Of a DNA stretch of 64,000 nucleotides, positions 9,311 to 24,776 are shown one piece after another. The notes under the pieces are model-generated. The model had not been told where the DNA came from, searched no databases, and saw only the letters and a program-made list of their open reading frames with translations. How positions within the stretch are numbered: position 1 is the stretch's first letter; every line of letters begins with the position of its first letter. The position numbers and the translations under genes are program-made. Source of the DNA: a virus (lineage: Duplodnaviria > Caudoviricetes); the IMG/VR virus record IMGVR_UViG_3300028624_000004, positions 1 to 64,000 of that record. One strand, written 5' to 3'.

Positions 9311-9446
9311 AGTTTTTTCCTTCTTGTTTTATTATCTTTTGTTTTTTCTATTAGTCAAACTCTAAGTTACTTACTAAGATTCTAATTTGACTTCTAAAAT
9401 TCTTCTATGTACTTATGATGGAGGACCGCCCTCCAACCTTTTATAT

Positions 9447-17275: not shown

Positions 17276-18370
17276 ATGAAACACGAAATAGCACTGATAT
17301 CTGATATTCATTTTGGGTGTCGAGGCAATAGTGAAAAATATATTTCTACCATGGTTTCTTTCTTTAAAGAAACTTTATTTAATGTTTTAAAAACAAGAAA
17401 TATAAGTGATTTAAGGATTTTGGGAGATTTATTCGATAACCGAAATGCTTTAAATGTTAGAACGATAAATGCCGTAATTGATGTATTTTCTTTTTTAGAA
17501 AAATCTCTACCAGATCTTAAGATAAAGTTGCTCATGGGAAACCACGATCAATACTATCACAATAGATATGATATTATCTCGTTGAATATATTAAGAAATT
17601 TTAGAAATATAGAAATAATTGATAAAGTAACAGAAGAAAATATAAACGGAAAAAGTATCCTTATGGTTCCGTGGATTGTTCCCGATACTTCCATTTATGA
17701 AGACTATATGAATTATGTTAGGAGTGAGAAGAAGTTTGATTTACTCCTTGGTCATTTTGAAATCAATGGGTTTGAGGTATCGCCGGGAATAACTGATACA
17801 CATGGAATACAAATTAGGCTATTTAAGAATTTCAAAAGAGTATTATCTGGTCATTATCATTTGAGAAATACTATGGATCAGATAACTTATCTCGGATGTC
17901 CTTACCAGCTAACTTGGGGAGATTATGGTAACACAAAGGGAATACATATCTATGATATTGATTCTGGTGATACTACTTTCATAGAAAATACACTAAGTCC
18001 TAGATTTGTTAAAATATTCATGTCTGACTTAGCTGCTGGTAACAAAGAATGTCTTAATAATGTTTCTGGTAACTTTGTTAAATTGATTATTGATAAAAAA
18101 TACAATGAAACTGCTATTCATAAAGTTATTGCGTTGTTAGAGTCTCGTGGAGCCGTATTGACAATAGATAATCAATATGTAGAACAGAGCGAAATATCAA
18201 CCGAAAAAAATTCCACAGATATGTCTAAGCTACACGATCCTCTATCTTTTTTGATAGAGTATGTAAAAATAATTGATATTCCAGACGACATAAAGGATGT
18301 TATAGATAAACAAGAGCTTGCAATTAGAGCTACAGAAATATACCGTAAGATTTTATCTGAAAAAGATTAA
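17276..18370 (+). CDS. 47: Recombination nuclease subunit gp47 (Mre11/SbcD-like)
   Basis: SDIHFG, LGDLFD, GNHD, GHFE, SGHYH. Confidence 0.95.
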   Translation: MKHEIALISDIHFGCRGNSEKYISTMVSFFKETLFNVLKTRNISDLRILGDLFDNRNALNVRTINAVIDVFSFLEKSLPDLKIKLLMGNHDQYYHNRYDIISLNILRNFRNIEIIDKVTEENINGKSILMVPWIVPDTSIYEDYMNYVRSEKKFDLLLGHFEINGFEVSPGITDTHGIQIRLFKNFKRVLSGHYHLRNTMDQITYLGCPYQLTWGDYGNTKGIHIYDIDSGDTTFIENTLSPRFVKIFMSDLAAGNKECLNNVSGNFVKLIIDKKYNETAIHKVIALLESRGAVLTIDNQYVEQSEISTEKNSTDMSKLHDPLSFLIEYVKIIDIPDDIKDVIDKQELAIRATEIYRKILSEKD

Positions 18371-18424: not shown

Positions 18425-20230
18425 ATGAAGATACTTTTTAAGCGTGTTAAGATAAAAAATTTCCTCAGTTTCGGGAATAATGAAACTGTTTTTGATTACC
18501 AAAAGGGAATCAATATTGTAACAGGAATTATTGACGGTTCTGTTACAAAGAACGGCGCTGGAAAATCAACTCTCATTGTAGATTCTATATCTTTTGCTAT
18601 ATATGGTAAGCCTCTACGCGGAGACTCGCATATCAACAAAGAAGAACTTATCAATAAATCAAATGGCAAGAATTGTCTTGTGGAAGTTGAGTTTAATGTT
18701 GATAACGAGGAATTTATTGTAACTCGCGGAATAAAACCAAATATATTTACTATATTACATAACGGAAATGAAGTTAAACTAGATTCTATAAAAAATACTC
18801 AAGAATGGCTTATTTCTAAATTAGGCGTAAGCCACACTTGCTTCTCTAATATAGTCGTACTTAATGTTAACTCATCTATTCCGTTTCTTGGCATGGATGC
18901 TATATCTAAAAGAAAAGTAATTGAAGATATTGTTTCGTTAAATATATACGGAAGAATGGCAGATACTCTTAAGCAGCAATATCTTGACGCCAAGGCAGAT
19001 ATTACTGTAATTGACAACGAGATTATATCAAAATGTAAGGCGCTTCAGGTTGCACAAGAAGGAAGAGAACGTATTCTTGCACAGCAAGAATCTTTCGATA
19101 AAGAAAAAGCCCTACATATAGAAGCTATATCTGAAAAAATTAAACATATAAGAGAGTCTATTGAATCAACCAAATTAAAGATAGCTGATATAGATTATCA
19201 ATCTTTACTTGATTCTAATTCAATGTCAATAAAGGACGTTCAATCTAAGCTGGGACTTTTGTCTAATAAGAGAGTCGAGGTTAATAAGAATATAAGAGAC
19301 GCTTCTGTTAACCTTGAAAATCTTGAACATAGTACTTCATGTCCAACTTGCAAAACCGTATTAGCAGAATCACCAATGGCTCAGAAATTCATTAATGAGT
19401 GTAAAGAAACTATAGAAGCTTCTAATATTTTATTAAAAAATATTAACAGTAAAATTTCTATTGGCAAGTCCAAGATAGAAGAGTTAGAAGAATCTGCTCG
19501 TAAAATACGACGTGATATGTCAACACAATCTGAATTAAAATCAGATCTAAATAATCTTTATGTTAACTTGAAGATGCGTGAAGAAGAATTAGAGAGAGAA
19601 AATAATAGAGTCCTTGACTTATCAAATACAATATCAGAAGAAAAAATAAAAGAGTATAAGGATTCATTGGCGTTATCAGAACAAAACCTAAAGGAAACAA
19701 ATAAGAAGTTTGCTTACTCTAAGCTTCTACGCAATATACTGGGCGAAGACGGCATACGAAAATTCGTTCTTAATAATATAATTCCTCACTTTAATAATAA
19801 GATTAACCATTACCTTAAAGTTATGGGAAGCGACTACAGCTTGATATTTGATACTAACCTAACTGAAAGTATCATATCAAGAAATAGAGATATTAGGACA
19901 TATGGAAACTTCTCATCTGGGGAAAAGAAGAGAATAGACTTGTCTATACTTCTTGCTTTGATGGATGTTGCTAAAATGCAAAATTCAGTTGACACAAACT
20001 TATTTGTACTTGATGAAGTGTTGGACACATCAATGGATAATGATGGCGTTGAATGTTTCTTAGAGTATCTTCGAAATGATTTCAAGAAGATGTATCCTGA
20101 TAAGTGTGTTTATATAATTACACACAGAAATGATGTTTCTGGTGACACTTTTGATAGAATGATATATCTAAGAAAAGTTAAATCGTTTACGACTATTGAT
20201 AAAATAGTCGAATTCCACACTGAAGATTAA
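18425..20230 (+). CDS. 46: Recombination ATPase gp46 (Rad50/SbcC-like)
   Basis: KNFLSFG, NGAGKST, CPTC hook, FSSGEK, LDEVLD, ITH. Confidence 0.95.
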   Translation: MKILFKRVKIKNFLSFGNNETVFDYQKGINIVTGIIDGSVTKNGAGKSTLIVDSISFAIYGKPLRGDSHINKEELINKSNGKNCLVEVEFNVDNEEFIVTRGIKPNIFTILHNGNEVKLDSIKNTQEWLISKLGVSHTCFSNIVVLNVNSSIPFLGMDAISKRKVIEDIVSLNIYGRMADTLKQQYLDAKADITVIDNEIISKCKALQVAQEGRERILAQQESFDKEKALHIEAISEKIKHIRESIESTKLKIADIDYQSLLDSNSMSIKDVQSKLGLLSNKRVEVNKNIRDASVNLENLEHSTSCPTCKTVLAESPMAQKFINECKETIEASNILLKNINSKISIGKSKIEELEESARKIRRDMSTQSELKSDLNNLYVNLKMREEELERENNRVLDLSNTISEEKIKEYKDSLALSEQNLKETNKKFAYSKLLRNILGEDGIRKFVLNNIIPHFNNKINHYLKVMGSDYSLIFDTNLTESIISRNRDIRTYGNFSSGEKKRIDLSILLALMDVAKMQNSVDTNLFVLDEVLDTSMDNDGVECFLEYLRNDFKKMYPDKCVYIITHRNDVSGDTFDRMIYLRKVKSFTTIDKIVEFHTED

Positions 20231-20859
20231 GCTTTTACATTAAAGTCAATAACTTTAGGTATCTTATCTGCGTCTATGTAGCACATAAGTTTCTCACGGT
20301 TTCCCTCTGGGTCGTTTGTAACAACAACTACAACACTATAGTTTCTATCTTTAGATCTATCTCTTGGATTTGTTCCATCAGATATTCTTCTTATACCTGG
20401 GTTAAACTTCATAGCATCATAAAATTGCTTAATAAATGGTTCCATCATTTTCTTCATGACGGCTCTATCTATAAGAACTATTCTGTTATTCAAAAACTTT
20501 ATAGCTAAGTAATCTGCTTTACTTAGTAAATCTCTACCAGGGGTTTTGTCTCTGTAGTTAATGTAATATTCAAAAATAATATCTTTATTACTATTTGGAT
20601 CAAGTCTTGACTTTATAGTTATAGACTTCTTGCTATCGTCATTTTCAACTATCCATCCATCTATTTTTAGATTATGATCTTCATCATAGGTAGGCGCTAT
20701 AACATCCTTTATCTTACCGGGATATTTCTTGTTGAGAGCAGCTTTAAGCCACTTACGGACAAATACTTCATCAGCATTTCCTTGACCTCTTGTGTCAATA
20801 TAACCAGCTTCAGTTATTTGGTTATATGTATTCTTCAAACTTTCAAGTATTTTATCCAT
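20227..20859 (-). CDS. Hypothetical protein with possible PD-(D/E)XK nuclease fold
   Basis: G...E, KIDGWI, ITIKSR, IIFEY, PG...KADYL spacing; late promoter at 20896-20903 (-). Confidence 0.5.
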   Translation of the reverse strand: MDKILESLKNTYNQITEAGYIDTRGQGNADEVFVRKWLKAALNKKYPGKIKDVIAPTYDEDHNLKIDGWIVENDDSKKSITIKSRLDPNSNKDIIFEYYINYRDKTPGRDLLSKADYLAIKFLNNRIVLIDRAVMKKMMEPFIKQFYDAMKFNPGIRRISDGTNPRDRSKDRNYSVVVVVTNDPEGNREKLMCYIDADKIPKVIDFNVKA

Positions 20860-20960
20860 GCTAAGTTACTCCTAAGTTACTTATAGTTACTAACTTATTT
20901 ATAGTAATATTTTTATATAACTATTTTATAATAACTTACATACTTAAAGTAACTTATCTT
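20860..20960. repeat. AT-rich segment with iterated TAAGTTACT/TAGTTACT and inverted AGTAACTTA
   Basis: ctaagttact-cctaagttact-tatagttact in tandem, with an inverted copy near 20948-20956. Confidence 0.6.
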
Positions 20961-20974
20961 CCTGTAGAAATATT

Positions 20975-21222
20975 ACATATGTAGACAATAATCCAACCAC
21001 ATTCATCATGAGGTTTTCATTTATATGTGTCATACTCCATCTATAGTATGGAGAACCCATTCACGGCTGGGTGACTTATATTTACCGCCAAGATTTTGTT
21101 TTTATCTTGACTAAGCTTTCACTTAGTCAGTAAGTATATGGTGTCAAATCTTAACAACCTACCATACACTCACTCCTGCTGTCCTTTTTTAACGAGTGAG
21201 GACTAACTTAGGAAACTCGTAA
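20975..21222 (-). ncRNA. Putative structured non-coding RNA (multi-hairpin)
   Basis: At least six stems in an ORF-free gap; mismatches read as G-U pairs on the minus strand; extended -10 TGATAAAAT immediately upstream (about 21227-21235). Confidence 0.55.
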
Positions 21223-21249
21223 ATACATTTTATCATGTAATTCTCATAT

Positions 21250-22692
21250 TCAAGGAACTCTTATTATTTCCGGTAATTTATTGTTGCTATTTTTTCTATT
21301 AATAACTATAAAAATAACGGGAATAAAAAGATTTTCACGACTTAGAAACATGGCAGTAGTAGTCTTAAAATATGGGAATGTTTTTGACCATTTTTTAAAT
21401 AATTTTATACCACTTTCAACAAATGCGTCTGCGTGACCGCCTGATAAATTGCCCTGACCATCTGAAAGGTGATGACAATCAGCATCTATAGCGAAATTTT
21501 TATACCCCATAGATAATGCCTGTAAGCATATGTCTGCGCCGTACCAATGGTAGTGATCAAATGTTTCTTGATCAAATCTAAAAGGAGAGTCTTTTCTCAT
21601 TATCAGCGATAACTCATCAATAGTTTGAACTTCTCTGTAGTTTCCATAAACTTCACGGTATATAGCTGCATAAGACTTTTTTGAGTTTTTCGTTAAATCC
21701 GACAGATAGAGAGCATTTCCGTCTTTATCAGGCGTAAACTCACTACTATACTTATAAGCCCCAGCCATTCCTAATATACCCCATCTTATTCTATTCTTAG
21801 CAAAATTTGTTACATGATTCAGAATACCTTCTACCCATGCTCCATTTACTCTTAAATCTTGATGACAGAGATTAACTATAACACCATCGGCTAAATCTAA
21901 TGCTATATTAAGTGGCTCAGCACATCCCGTAAACTCGTTGTTGAAATTGGGAACTGCTATTATTTCAAATTTATAATCTGTTCTCTGTGATAGAAGATCA
22001 GAAAGAAAATCCTTATACTGTAATTCATTATTAACTAAAGTGGCTATTGTAAAATGAACGTCTTTTTTAACTCTAAAATTTAATATATCTTTCTTCAGAG
22101 ATTCTTTATTTAAATCACTAATAACAAATGGACAAGGAAGCGATATTTTATTATTAAACGAATACCTAGCTATAAAGGTTATAAAATCATAATCAAATAA
22201 AACATTATCGCTTATACTCAAAAGCAGATGTGTTTCTTTAGTTTTATAATTAGGATCGTCCACAAATATTACATTTGTATATTTTGTAGTAGTTAATATC
22301 TTATTCTTATATTCTTCTTTGTTAGATCCGTTAATGGCAATATATATTGGTGGTTTTTTACCCCTTGGGTATCTTGTAACGTAATTTATAGACTCTGTAA
22401 TGTTTGTTATATTCGAGTCTAAAATAGGTTTCTCTTGTAATCTCATGGCATATTCACTTGAATTTGAGTTTGCGTTTATAAAAGCCCGAAGCTTATGCAT
22501 CGGGTTAGCTTTTAAAAACTTCGGCATATGTTTTACATGTTTATCATAGTCTAGGTCGGTTACTTCTTTTAATGCTCTGTAATTTTTCAAATTATCTGGT
22601 CCCTCGACAATCGACCCTGCTGGAATTGAAATCCTTCTACCTTTCATTAAGATATTAATTTCCCTATCACTTATATTTCTAAATTTAGCCAT
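21250..22692 (-). CDS. Glycosyltransferase (GT-A/GT2-like C-terminal domain)
   Basis: NLCHQDL (DxD-like), GILGMAG, VQTIDEL, FDQETFDHYHWYGADICLQA...CHHLSDG. Confidence 0.82.
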   Translation of the reverse strand: MAKFRNISDREINILMKGRRISIPAGSIVEGPDNLKNYRALKEVTDLDYDKHVKHMPKFLKANPMHKLRAFINANSNSSEYAMRLQEKPILDSNITNITESINYVTRYPRGKKPPIYIAINGSNKEEYKNKILTTTKYTNVIFVDDPNYKTKETHLLLSISDNVLFDYDFITFIARYSFNNKISLPCPFVISDLNKESLKKDILNFRVKKDVHFTIATLVNNELQYKDFLSDLLSQRTDYKFEIIAVPNFNNEFTGCAEPLNIALDLADGVIVNLCHQDLRVNGAWVEGILNHVTNFAKNRIRWGILGMAGAYKYSSEFTPDKDGNALYLSDLTKNSKKSYAAIYREVYGNYREVQTIDELSLIMRKDSPFRFDQETFDHYHWYGADICLQALSMGYKNFAIDADCHHLSDGQGNLSGGHADAFVESGIKLFKKWSKTFPYFKTTTAMFLSRENLFIPVIFIVINRKNSNNKLPEIIRVP

Positions 22693-24160
22693 TGATATTA
22701 ATATCCTTCTTAGTTACCTTAAAGTTATTTGCCTCGTAATACTTTATTCGCTTTTTCGAGTGTTGTTGTGAGAACTTAAGATTTTCACAGAAATCATAGA
22801 GATTAAGTTTAGTTTTCGTGGAGTGTAATCTAAGACCTCTACCAACAGACTGGAGAGTTTGAATTTTACTCTTACCAGCCGAAGCAAATATAACAGTATG
22901 AAGTCTATTAATAGAAACACCAGTGGAGTAAACACCAACCGTAGCCACAATGACAGTTCCACCAGTTTTCTCTACGTCTCTTCTAATATCATTTCTATCG
23001 TTTATTTTCGTTTCACCAGTAACAACTTCAACATCAACGCTCATATCATCGAGAATTTTAAATAAAGTTTTTGAATGATCAATTTTCTTAACCAGTATTA
23101 ACACATTCATATTCTTCTTTACATATTCATTGGCTATTTTGCAAATTATTTTATTTCTCTTCTCGTCGCTTTCAATGTATTCCTTTTCCGCAGTAAAATC
23201 ATCGAATATCATTTTACTAGTAATTGATTCTGGGTAGTTGATATTAACAACCGTTATATCTATATCAGAAATCTGTTTAGCTTCTTGAAGTTCAGTATAT
23301 CCTACTTTATCAATGACTGGACCAAGAACACCCTCAACGAGCATGTAATCTGATTTAACATCTGGCATCGTCCCCGTGAATCCTAGACGAACATCTGCAT
23401 TTACCATCTTTTCAGCAACCGACCTGACTACATCGGCTTTAAGACCATGACACTCATCGACTATTAAAACAGAAAACTGCTTAAGAATTTCCTTTTGCTT
23501 ATGCATGGATTGCCATGTAGAAACAATAAACGGTTGTTCGGTGTCTTTTTGGTATCCGCAGAATTTACCAATAAGATTGGCATCTATACCATATGTTACA
23601 AGATTTTCAGCAAACTGTTCTATTAGATCAAGTTTGGGAACAAGAATAAGTATTTTGTTTTCCTTGTTTTTCTGGTAAAGATAGTTTACTGTCAAGCTTA
23701 TAGTAAGGGACTTTCCGCTAGAAGTAACATGCTCACAAATACCCCTACCAAAATATAAACTCTTCAAAGCCCCTCTAAACTGATGAACATACGGAACCAT
23801 TTTTGAATTAAGGGTATCTTCGGTTACTTTAAAAAAATCCCTCTTAAGATCATCTGTATTTTTTTCAATGTTATAATTTGGATCAACTTGAACGTCATAT
23901 ATATCATCATTTCTTACATATTTAAGAAGACGATGAAAAATACCATTATAAAAAGTCCCATCAAAGTTAATAAACCTTATTTTACCGTCCCATCTTCCAG
24001 ATTTATAAGCAGGCATAAACCAATAGTTCTCAACTGGAACTGAGAATTTTTTAATAGCAGCTTCCAATACACGAGGGTCATCACACAGTAGTTGACCGTG
24101 GACATGATCTAATTTAACAAAAGTAATCTTGGGCTTAGTTGACTCTGAATCCATCGTCAA
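22685..24160 (-). CDS. uvsW: SF2 helicase UvsW
   Basis: WDGKIR, TSSGKS, STWQS, DECH, GFTGT, STGVSI, QSVGRGLR. Confidence 0.95.
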   Translation of the reverse strand: MTMDSESTKPKITFVKLDHVHGQLLCDDPRVLEAAIKKFSVPVENYWFMPAYKSGRWDGKIRFINFDGTFYNGIFHRLLKYVRNDDIYDVQVDPNYNIEKNTDDLKRDFFKVTEDTLNSKMVPYVHQFRGALKSLYFGRGICEHVTSSGKSLTISLTVNYLYQKNKENKILILVPKLDLIEQFAENLVTYGIDANLIGKFCGYQKDTEQPFIVSTWQSMHKQKEILKQFSVLIVDECHGLKADVVRSVAEKMVNADVRLGFTGTMPDVKSDYMLVEGVLGPVIDKVGYTELQEAKQISDIDITVVNINYPESITSKMIFDDFTAEKEYIESDEKRNKIICKIANEYVKKNMNVLILVKKIDHSKTLFKILDDMSVDVEVVTGETKINDRNDIRRDVEKTGGTVIVATVGVYSTGVSINRLHTVIFASAGKSKIQTLQSVGRGLRLHSTKTKLNLYDFCENLKFSQQHSKKRIKYYEANNFKVTKKDINING

Positions 24161-24168
24161 CTATTATA

Positions 24169-24681
24169 TCATGTCCCTCGTTCTATTTTCCTATATTCTA
24201 ATATATAGCGTAATCCGTAACTTTTAGTCTTCACATTATCTACAGCACGTTCTAAGAACTCTAGGTATTCGGAATATGAATCAAGGAAACTTTTAGCCCT
24301 AGCGATTTTAGTACTACGAATAACCGCCCCGTCAAGTTCGGTATTTGTGCGGAACATCTTAGGGTTCATTTTAGCATTGTCAACCTCTTGAGCATAAAAT
24401 CTATCATATTTGTTTTTATATATGTTATAGACGTGCTTCTCCCTAGCCAATGCTTCGCTGTATCTTGATAAAGCAGAATGACACTTGATCATTTCTCTCT
24501 CTATATTTGATCCCTCACCATTATCGTATTCCATTACTCGTTTAACATCATCCCTCAATTTTGTAACCTTTTCATCGTGCTTAGCCTCTAGGCTTTTTAC
24601 TATTTCATCACATTCACCCTGCAATACCTGAAACTCACTATCTGTCATAAACCTGTTGTCTAGCTTATTCACATCGTTCAT
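24169..24681 (-). CDS. uvsY: Recombination mediator UvsY-like
   Basis: Helical protein ending EFLERAVDNVKTKSYGLRYILEYRK; adjacent to uvsW as in T4. Confidence 0.7.
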   Translation of the reverse strand: MNDVNKLDNRFMTDSEFQVLQGECDEIVKSLEAKHDEKVTKLRDDVKRVMEYDNGEGSNIEREMIKCHSALSRYSEALAREKHVYNIYKNKYDRFYAQEVDNAKMNPKMFRTNTELDGAVIRSTKIARAKSFLDSYSEYLEFLERAVDNVKTKSYGLRYILEYRKIERGT

Positions 24682-24776
24682 AATATCTCCTGATAGATTT
24701 ATATTATATTACTTTTGGTCTGGTTATATAATATATTATAAATAACTTTGTAATAAAAGATATAATAAACTCTATT

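Follow-up and report, generated by a model that had tools for sequence, protein, structure and literature searches.

The stretch analysed here, referred to as the window, comprises the first 64 kb of the 177.5-kb virus record IMGVR_UViG_3300028624_000004 in IMG/VR (estimated completeness 76%), which derives from a distant T4-like phage whose UvsW protein shares no more than ~33% identity with its counterparts in cultured phages. The 177.5-kb genome is represented in 14 sludge runs of DNA metagenome series. Between a gene for a GT2-like glycosyltransferase of 480 aa (21250-22692, minus strand; PF13712, E-value 4.8e-10) and an open reading frame (ORF) of 210 aa without a family match (20227-20859, minus strand) lies a gap of 390 nt (20860-21249), the largest internal stretch of the window without an ORF, as a preliminary description of this DNA had already observed. 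Read along the minus strand, the gap holds the -10 element of a sigma-70-type promoter, the ~246-nt core of a structured non-coding RNA (ncRNA; 20975-21220), a short conserved block (20946-20964) and an AT-rich iterated spacer (20860-20945). The genes for UvsW (22685-24160) and a UvsY-like protein (24169-24681) precede the glycosyltransferase gene on the same strand, and beyond the 210-aa ORF lie a gp46-like gene (18425-20230) and a gp47-like gene (17276-18370), both on the plus strand. Covariance-model matches and covariation among homologous loci identify 20975-21220 on the minus strand as the gene of a structured RNA, and that this gene is both real and new we regard as close to certain.

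The promoter (21227-21253) is composed of a -35 box TTGAAT (21253-21248), which overlaps the stop codon of the glycosyltransferase gene, a 15-nt spacer and an extended -10 element TGATAAAAT (21235-21227), with transcription predicted to start near A21220. The extended -10 had been pointed out in the preliminary description and is indeed present where it was placed. Promoters of the homologues were judged by eye on the upstream sequences, the automatic picks of the script being unreliable; a -35/-10 pair is found in all 16 of them, the -10 ending ~7-12 nt before the first helix, and in most it is TG-extended. The 5' end of the RNA is taken from this promoter, while conservation runs on past the core to ~20946. 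No intrinsic terminator was found after the core on the RNA strand, and the primary transcript therefore probably extends into the AT-rich spacer.

Folding of the minus strand (20990-21235) gives a minimum free energy of -66.5 kcal/mol compared with -48.9 +/- 4.3 for 200 dinucleotide shuffles (z -4.15), none of which folds as well; this comparison had been named in advance as a check on the presence of an RNA, and the plus strand reaches only z -2.34. The core opens with a hairpin, P1 (21192-21220), formed by ACGAGT (21220-21215) and ACTCGT (21197-21192), in which four of the six pairs are changed on both sides among the homologues. Its loop holds the near-invariant CCUAAGUUAGUCC (21212-21200) and is identical in 11 of 16 members, the variation being otherwise confined to CUARGUUAGUY. 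Within this loop GUCC (21203-21200) pairs with GGAC (21184-21181), which sits after an A-rich linker, to form with P1 an H-type pseudoknot (PK1, 21181-21203). Of the cells counted for PK1, 100% are paired, a compensatory variant GUUC/GAAC occurs in the homologous locus L106 (homologous loci and their contigs are designated by L and a number), and a second variant, GUCU/AGAC, can be seen by eye in L004 and L108, where an alignment gap hides it. There follow a hairpin of 13 bp, P2 (21130-21173; 21173-21161 with 21142-21130), with all 13 pairs changed on both sides, arms GTGTATGGT/ACCATATAC in the window and a conserved AAGGU...GAC in the apical region, and the shorter P3 (21110-21127; ACUAAGU/GCUUAGU, six of seven pairs changed on both sides), which is capped by a GAAA tetraloop, or by GUAA or UAAA in other members.

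An A-rich joiner conserved in sequence (21089-21109; family consensus AAGAGAAAACAAAG) connects P3 to a 3' domain (21029-21088) defined by covariation. Here P6 (GUCA, 21075-21072, with UGAC, 21032-21029) encloses P5a (CCCA, 21071-21068, with UGGG, 21059-21056) and P5 (CUCCAU, 21053-21048, with AUGGAG, 21040-21035); all 14 pairs of these three helices are changed on both sides and 95-100% of cells are paired. A second H-type pseudoknot, PK2, joins GCGGU (21088-21084) to GCCGU in the P5a loop (21067-21063), with three of five pairs changed on both sides and with the variants AUGGU/GCCAU (L102), ACGGG/CUCGU and a flipped GCCG/CGGY (L009, L109 and L111). The 3' part of the core (20975-21028) may be closed by a tentative helix P8 (ACAUAU, 21028-21023, with AUAUGU, 20980-20975), within which lies P7 (CCUCAU, 21013-21008, with AUGUGG, 21002-20997). 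By eye, several members show covariation in both, for instance CAUAUAG/CUAUAUG in L106 and CACAUAA/UUAUGUG in L104, but in this AT-rich sequence neither reached significance individually. The near-invariant unpaired segments are CUAAGUUAGUCC, AAGGU, AAGAGAAAACAAAG and CGUAAA, and the strongest sequence conservation of the whole RNA falls on such loops and joiners, a pattern that resembles that of RNAs making tertiary or intermolecular contacts.

Sixteen distinct full-length homologues, and one more cut off by the end of its contig, were collected, all of them in uncultured T4-like phages from activated sludge, sediments, digesters and fresh water. In L004, a relative found via its UvsW, the syntenic gap shares the short motifs CTAAGTTAGTC, GACAGCAG and TTTGACACC, while the sequences flanking them differ yet are still complementary. 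Scanning IMG/VR and the JGI metagenomes with CTAAGTTAGTC and GACAGCAG gave eight further distinct members. A covariance model, R1, built from the three closest sequences and run on 595 kb around the gp46 genes of 79 T4-like viral contigs, matched only the nine members already known, and around the gp46 genes of relatives at <=32% identity it gave no match. Seven more members, some with changes in motifs that had appeared invariant, were reached through homologues of the upstream glycosyltransferase and their contigs. R1 and a second model, R2, match 20985-21223 of the window with E-values of 1.2e-80 and 5.3e-58, respectively, and a covariance-model search found a single copy in the genome of the window's phage. 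Exact peptide patterns from the 210-aa and 480-aa flanking proteins retrieved no close relatives in IMG/VR. The pattern matches L005/L007, L091/L101, L094 and L096 were discarded as chance hits, L007 lying in an ORF of a contig that is not T4-like and the others being GC-rich or devoid of the P1 stem.

The RNA evolves more slowly than the DNA around it. In close pairs the core and the adjacent coding DNA are 92 vs 76%, 93 vs 77%, 88 vs 74% and 92 vs 80% identical; between the window and L095 the core is 92% identical and the neighbouring gene 76%. A freshwater-sediment contig differs from the window by 12 bases and two indels over 20886-21229 (~96% identical), with diverged flanks. One member (L109) lies on a 415-kb contig with the same uvsY-uvsW-GT2-RNA-gp46-gp47 block, so that the family would reach jumbo-sized T4-like genomes if this contig is wholly viral.

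The alignment used for the covariation statistics (A7) contains the 16 sequences, and 49 pairs in eight helices were counted. Forty-one of the 49 pairs are changed on both sides (shuffle mean 30.8; none of 500 shuffles as high), and 89.1% of cells form a standard pair, as against 30-42% when the 3' partners are slid by 1-3 columns and 64% in shuffles (again 0/500 as high). Fitting of the alignment to the nested helices biases it somewhat towards them. PK1 and PK2 were absent from the aligning model and covary nonetheless, and we argue from the size of the effect and from the behaviour of the pseudoknots that fitting is not the cause of the covariation. In a plain MAFFT alignment the stems were not in register, so that RNAalifold found few of the helices, and this attempt was superseded by the model-based alignment.

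Measured against these homologues, about half of the helices proposed in the preliminary description stand, and both pseudoknots had been missed. All the motifs it listed are present on the minus strand where it located them. The stems ACGAGT/ACTCGT (P1) and GTGTATGGT/ACCATATAC (P2, whose true length is 13 bp) are kept with compensatory changes across the 16 homologues, as are all arms of its second junction, in which GTCA/TGAC encloses CCCA/TGGG and CTCCAT/ATGGAG (P6, P5a and P5). Its first three-way junction survives only in part: ACTAAG/CTTAGT corresponds to P3, whereas the closing stem TTACTG/CGGTAA and the arm CAAGAT/ATCTTG pair no better than background (41-51%), the latter being a way of folding the A-rich joiner that is available solely to the window's subgroup (4 of 16). 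The stem CTCACTC/GAGTGAG, thought to compete with P1, and the inner stem GTTAA/TTGAC are likewise unconserved and pair at background level (41-51%). The many G-U and U-G pairs bear out the remark that mismatches would become wobble pairs on the minus strand, as expected for an RNA read from it, and the covariation test in homologous intergenic regions, which had also been proposed, came out in favour of the RNA with the 41 pairs just described.

These data bear directly on the possibility that there is no RNA at all and that the conserved sequence encodes a small protein or acts at the level of DNA, as an operator or a cruciform. A public gene call does put an 86-aa protein exactly on the homologue in L105 (4038-4298), and the quasi-palindromic loop motif is operator-like. 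No reading frame is conserved over the RNA among the members, however, the stop-free stretches varying in frame and in length (16-73 aa), and the 86-aa gene is very probably a false one. The substitutions fall in compensatory pairs that include strand-specific G-U pairs, and covariation of the pseudoknots has no explanation at the level of DNA. We give this alternative next to no credence and regard it as refuted as far as sequence analysis goes. The locus instead combines what is generally expected of a structured ncRNA gene, namely compensatory substitutions, a promoter of its own and the lack of a conserved ORF.

The RNA also appears to be new. Searching positions 20000-22000 of the window with the 4227 covariance models of Rfam 15, which include GOLLD, ROOL, raiA, OLE, the known ribozymes and riboswitches, 6S RNA, RNase P and tmRNA, gave no match at E<=1. 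The same set run on six other loci (57.9 kb, E<=0.1) returned only a sub-threshold match to sau-19, which is unrelated and lies outside the RNA. ARAGORN found neither tRNA nor tmRNA in the 64-kb window, blastn against 50,697 phage records produced no match for the RNA, and literature searches with the motifs and for uvsW-linked ncRNAs brought up no relevant record, two recent large ncRNA surveys making no mention of uvsW, uvsY or T4-like phages. With 16 members, a conserved promoter and covariation, and with no match in Rfam, by ARAGORN or among cultured phages and no conserved ORF, the suggestion of a new ncRNA class, one of two offered in the preliminary description, is upheld, the Rfam search having been named there as a check. 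A catalogue of ~8,500 unnamed structured RNA candidates of 29-151 nt has been drawn from IMG/VR (PMC10690425). These candidates come from the same source as most members here and are likewise based on intergenic covariation, but they are shorter, and a fragment of the present RNA may be among them. The novelty is that of the RNA family, and does not extend to any mechanism.

The family is probably wider than R2 detects, since two further loci, L107 and L110, share the design of its 5' part. They have the same synteny, with gaps of 500-530 nt that are homologous to each other and contain a conserved non-coding block (L107:3596-3900 and L110:4349-4700; shared TTCCTTTAGAGAAAAGGATTC and ACGCAGAA). 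This block opens with a P1-like hairpin with the loops UAGUCACUA and UAAGUAGUG, and the loop has its complement (UAGUGA and CACUAUUUA) in a segment beyond an A-rich linker, giving the P1/PK1 arrangement with its pairing sequences fully changed. Judging from these sequences, the block probably represents the same RNA in a divergent form. R2 run with filters off on the L107, L110 and L002 loci gave no match, nor did it on the record of the L002 phage or on 3300037485_001282, the only viral contig with the L107/L110 block, and a pattern scan for a second form of the RNA returned only one contig.

The gene order around the RNA is constant among the members: uvsY, uvsW, the GT2-like gene as invariable upstream neighbour, the RNA, a variable ORF or nothing, and the convergent gp46 and gp47. 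In L100, L010, L009, L104, L109 and L111 the gene after the RNA is gp46 itself, and the 210-aa ORF, being confined among carriers of the RNA to the window's subgroup, is no constant partner of it. In several relatives (L004:5986-8083, L010:5271-8019 and L095, upstream of the GT2-like gene) an additional ORF of 76-293 aa interrupts uvsW and leaves it as two ORFs, which may reflect an intron or intein that carries a homing endonuclease; the uvsW gene of the window is intact.

Downstream of the core lies the conserved block CAGGAAGAUAAGUUACUU (20946-20964), which contains an inverted copy AAGTTACT of the spacer repeat and is kept in the window, L095, L100 and L102; other subgroups have related purine-rich motifs, CAGUAAGAGG and CAGUGAGGAC, in this place. 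The spacer proper (20860-20945) carries a T4-type late promoter recognised from its sequence, TATAAATA (20903-20896), and three AGTAACT units ~10-11 nt apart (20891-20864), the last of which overlaps the Shine-Dalgarno sequence AGGAG of the 210-aa ORF. The late promoter is thus located between the inverted copy AAGTTACTT (~20956-20948) and the three direct copies. The four occurrences of AGTAACT/AGTTACT in ~90 bp are the sole intergenic cluster in the 177.5-kb genome, and the top 7-mer count of the spacer was matched by one of 200 shuffles, in agreement with the AT-rich iterated segment noted in the preliminary description. The genome's second-densest AGTAACT cluster, outside the window (G000 133680-133715), is due to a coding tandem repeat of 12 nt, CCAGAAGTAACT x3 (Pro-Glu-Val-Thr-like), and the only other intergenic-looking AGTAACT site seen in the window is a near copy of the spacer repeat, TTAGTAAGTAACTTAG, at 9355-9380. 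Among the members the spacer has 63-80% A+T and is itself conserved. Its repeats are statistically notable in the window's subgroup and in L092, L108 and L010, with a spacing of ~10-11 nt in the window, L095, L100, L092 and L108, but are not significant in L106, L105, L009 and L109. Their sequences vary among subgroups while the RNA loop stays invariant, and a pairing of this loop with the repeats was considered and rejected as not conserved.

In the window the repeats could plausibly be read as part of an early/late translational switch. Early read-through RNA of the T4 lysozyme, soc and I-TevI genes is untranslatable, and a late promoter situated inside the hairpin frees the ribosome-binding site. 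In the minimum free energy fold of a long early transcript of the window, pairing of UAAGUUACUUU with GGAGUAACUUA hides the ribosome-binding site of the 210-aa ORF, an arrangement that can arise only in transcripts from the early promoter of the RNA, although the fold energy of this transcript is not above that of shuffles (z -0.77). A late promoter combined with occlusion of this kind would fit the window's repeats in part, as modelled on the lysozyme case. It is not the whole explanation, because related repeats persist in L100, where no gene follows, and in L002. The latter locus (L002:9237-9578; IMG/VR 3300049489_000477) has, after the GT2-like gene, a TG-extended promoter and many repeats (AAGTTACTT, AAGTTGCTT and ATCTGCTT) but no folded RNA, showing that repeats and RNA are separable; some of its repeats look like T4 MotA boxes (TGCTT). 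As a further observation on the 210-aa ORF, a 184-nt contig from a biofilm metatranscriptome is identical to the 5' part of this ORF (20693-20876) and ends 17 nt upstream of its ATG, just downstream of the late promoter; its depth of 2 makes it weak evidence, and as it does not reach the RNA it speaks neither for nor against expression of the latter.

The same arrangement raises the question of whether the RNA is a cis-regulatory leader or riboswitch for the 210-aa ORF, which lies downstream on the same strand and whose ribosome-binding site the early read-through transcript can bury. Against such a role, the downstream ORF belongs to differing families among the members or is absent altogether, the 210-aa ORF is served by a separate late promoter, situated after the RNA and before the start codon, and no terminator/antiterminator pair follows the core. 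The variable gene context largely refutes a leader, and we consider it very improbable.

A cis role of another kind was the second suggestion of the preliminary description, namely an R-loop-primed replication origin like T4 oriF. In general form, an origin would be made up of the early promoter together with the structured RNA and the AT-rich spacer with its repeats, and the transcript would run into this easily melted spacer and form an R-loop that primes leading-strand synthesis; the folded 5' domain would decide on hybrid formation, as in RNA II of ColE1, and late in infection the hybrid would be taken apart by UvsW, whose gene lies 1.5 kb away. T4 offers close points of comparison: oriF and oriG combine a middle promoter with an AT-rich unwinding element and form a transcript R-loop that is later removed by UvsW, while oriE requires an early promoter and carries direct repeats, each of 12 nt, at regular intervals and of unproven role (PMC3016281). 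As in oriE, oriF and oriG, a host-polymerase promoter here is directed into an A+T-rich region, without an intervening terminator; this region starts ~250 nt from the promoter, beyond the folded RNA. The locus sits within the replication/recombination module uvsY-uvsW-...-gp46-gp47, where uvsY, the site of oriF, and uvsW, whose product removes R-loops, are both neighbours of the RNA. The conservation of the spacer, the significant repeats in the window's subgroup, L092, L108 and L010, and the retention of the promoter and AAGTTACTT-type repeats in L002 without the RNA speak for the same possibility, and in outline the locus may be said to resemble oriE.

Other observations do not agree with an origin. 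The repeats are not universal and change in sequence between subgroups when the RNA loop does not, and those of the window are more simply read as a late promoter with ribosome-binding site occlusion. The middle promoter dependent on MotA that characterises oriF and oriG is absent, the members having, by eye, a TTGAMW -35 box or a TG-extended -10 typed as early sigma-70. Structure in the nascent RNA normally opposes R-loop formation. T4 origins have transcripts without a known conserved folded domain, and two pseudoknots with invariant loops exceed the needs of a primer. There is also no compositional sign of an origin: GC skew, a check named beforehand, follows gene orientation block by block with no switch beyond that of the coding strand, turning at 24.7 kb, upstream of uvsY, and not at the RNA. 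The minimum for the whole record falls in a divergent region of 95 bp (24682-24776) located upstream of the uvsY-like gene, and T4 oriF lies at uvsY; an origin inferred from skew was rejected, as the skew mirrors the coding strand. An origin of the oriF type is thus unsupported, and an R-loop-primed origin in the broader sense, though the chief rival of the reading preferred below, strikes us as doubtful. That the RNA would be specifically the regulatory 5' domain of a priming transcript, forming a structure-gated origin beside UvsW with pseudoknots that sense a protein or small molecule, is an unlikely proposition, though a coherent one.

The parallel with ColE1 RNA II, which such gating invokes, extends to a sigma-70 promoter and a structured RNA of a few hundred nucleotides whose fold controls hybrid formation with the DNA downstream. 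RNA II nevertheless belongs to a plasmid system and not to a T4-like phage; the present locus shares no homology with it and has no evident RNA I-type antisense promoter or G-rich/C-rich tracts to anchor a hybrid. Promoter-like sites on the plus strand of the gap are no commoner than in shuffled sequence.

The reading we prefer, at a probability of about 0.5, is that the RNA acts in trans, as a folded molecule that binds a partner. It would be made by the host RNA polymerase early in infection, and its two pseudoknots and tetraloop would build a compact scaffold on which the A-rich joiners are exposed together with the invariant loop of 12 nt, itself nearly palindromic. The partner may be a host or phage protein, or a second copy of the RNA engaged through a loop-loop kiss, and could be sequestered, guided or assembled, as is done by phi29 pRNA, 6S RNA or the self-assembling ROOL and GOLLD RNAs. 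We propose this because near-invariant unpaired segments are displayed on a double-pseudoknot scaffold, because no constant gene lies downstream, which argues against a cis leader, and because the early host-type promoter is strong. Several points weigh against it. The conservation of the spacer fits a cis role; synteny links no partner protein to the RNA; a discrete stable RNA would need processing, as no terminator follows the core; no transcript of the RNA was seen, the only RNA-library contig on the stretch, from the one metatranscriptome with this phage, covering 20693-20876, outside the RNA; and the mechanism is argued from architecture alone.

The need for a 3' end could be met if the RNA were a ribozyme, processing itself from the long early transcript, for example, or it might be the protomer of an RNA-only oligomer held together through its quasi-palindromic loop CUAAGUUAG. 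Two pseudoknots, a GNRA loop and conserved joiners are typical of ribozymes and of large ornate RNAs, and the loop variants CUAGGUUAG and UUAGGUUAG stay self-complementary by way of G-U pairs. GOLLD, an ornate RNA found in phages, was seen by cryo-EM to form RNA-only complexes (10.1101/2024.12.08.627333). Yet there is no match to the known ribozyme models of Rfam 15 and no conserved candidate cleavage site was identified, the self-pairing of the loop has a central G-G mismatch, and the changes in the loop are compatible with kissing without being truly compensatory. Catalysis or RNA-only assembly accordingly appears to us quite improbable.

The RNAs cited as models for a function in trans are likewise analogues only in part. 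GOLLD (RF01998) and ROOL (RF03087) resemble the present RNA in being independently transcribed, phage-borne and elaborately folded with pseudoknots, but they are found in other groups of phages and hosts and their covariance models give no match here. With a length of ~580-800 nt they are also much larger than this RNA of ~250 nt. The phi29 pRNA and 6S RNA share with it an early host-type promoter and a folded scaffold with exposed loops, through which pRNA oligomerises by loop-loop pairing. They differ in having no similarity to it in sequence or fold, and nothing seen here ties the RNA to a portal or to RNA polymerase; packaging of the T4 type is not known to need an RNA.

Few RNAs of ~250 nt combine two pseudoknots with a tetraloop and with unpaired segments that are invariant, and earlier ones proved to be ribozymes, riboswitch-like sensors or the cores of ribonucleoproteins. 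The present one is so far confined to a clade of uncultured T4-like phages, within whose replication/recombination module it evolves more slowly than the adjoining genes, and the covariance model together with the 16-member alignment suffices as the seed of an Rfam-style family. Should the RNA act in trans, it would represent a new tool that these phages employ on the host or against it. A role in cis would make it the T4 group's first structured origin RNA, and the long-standing question of how T4-type origins other than oriF and oriG fire would become directly testable.

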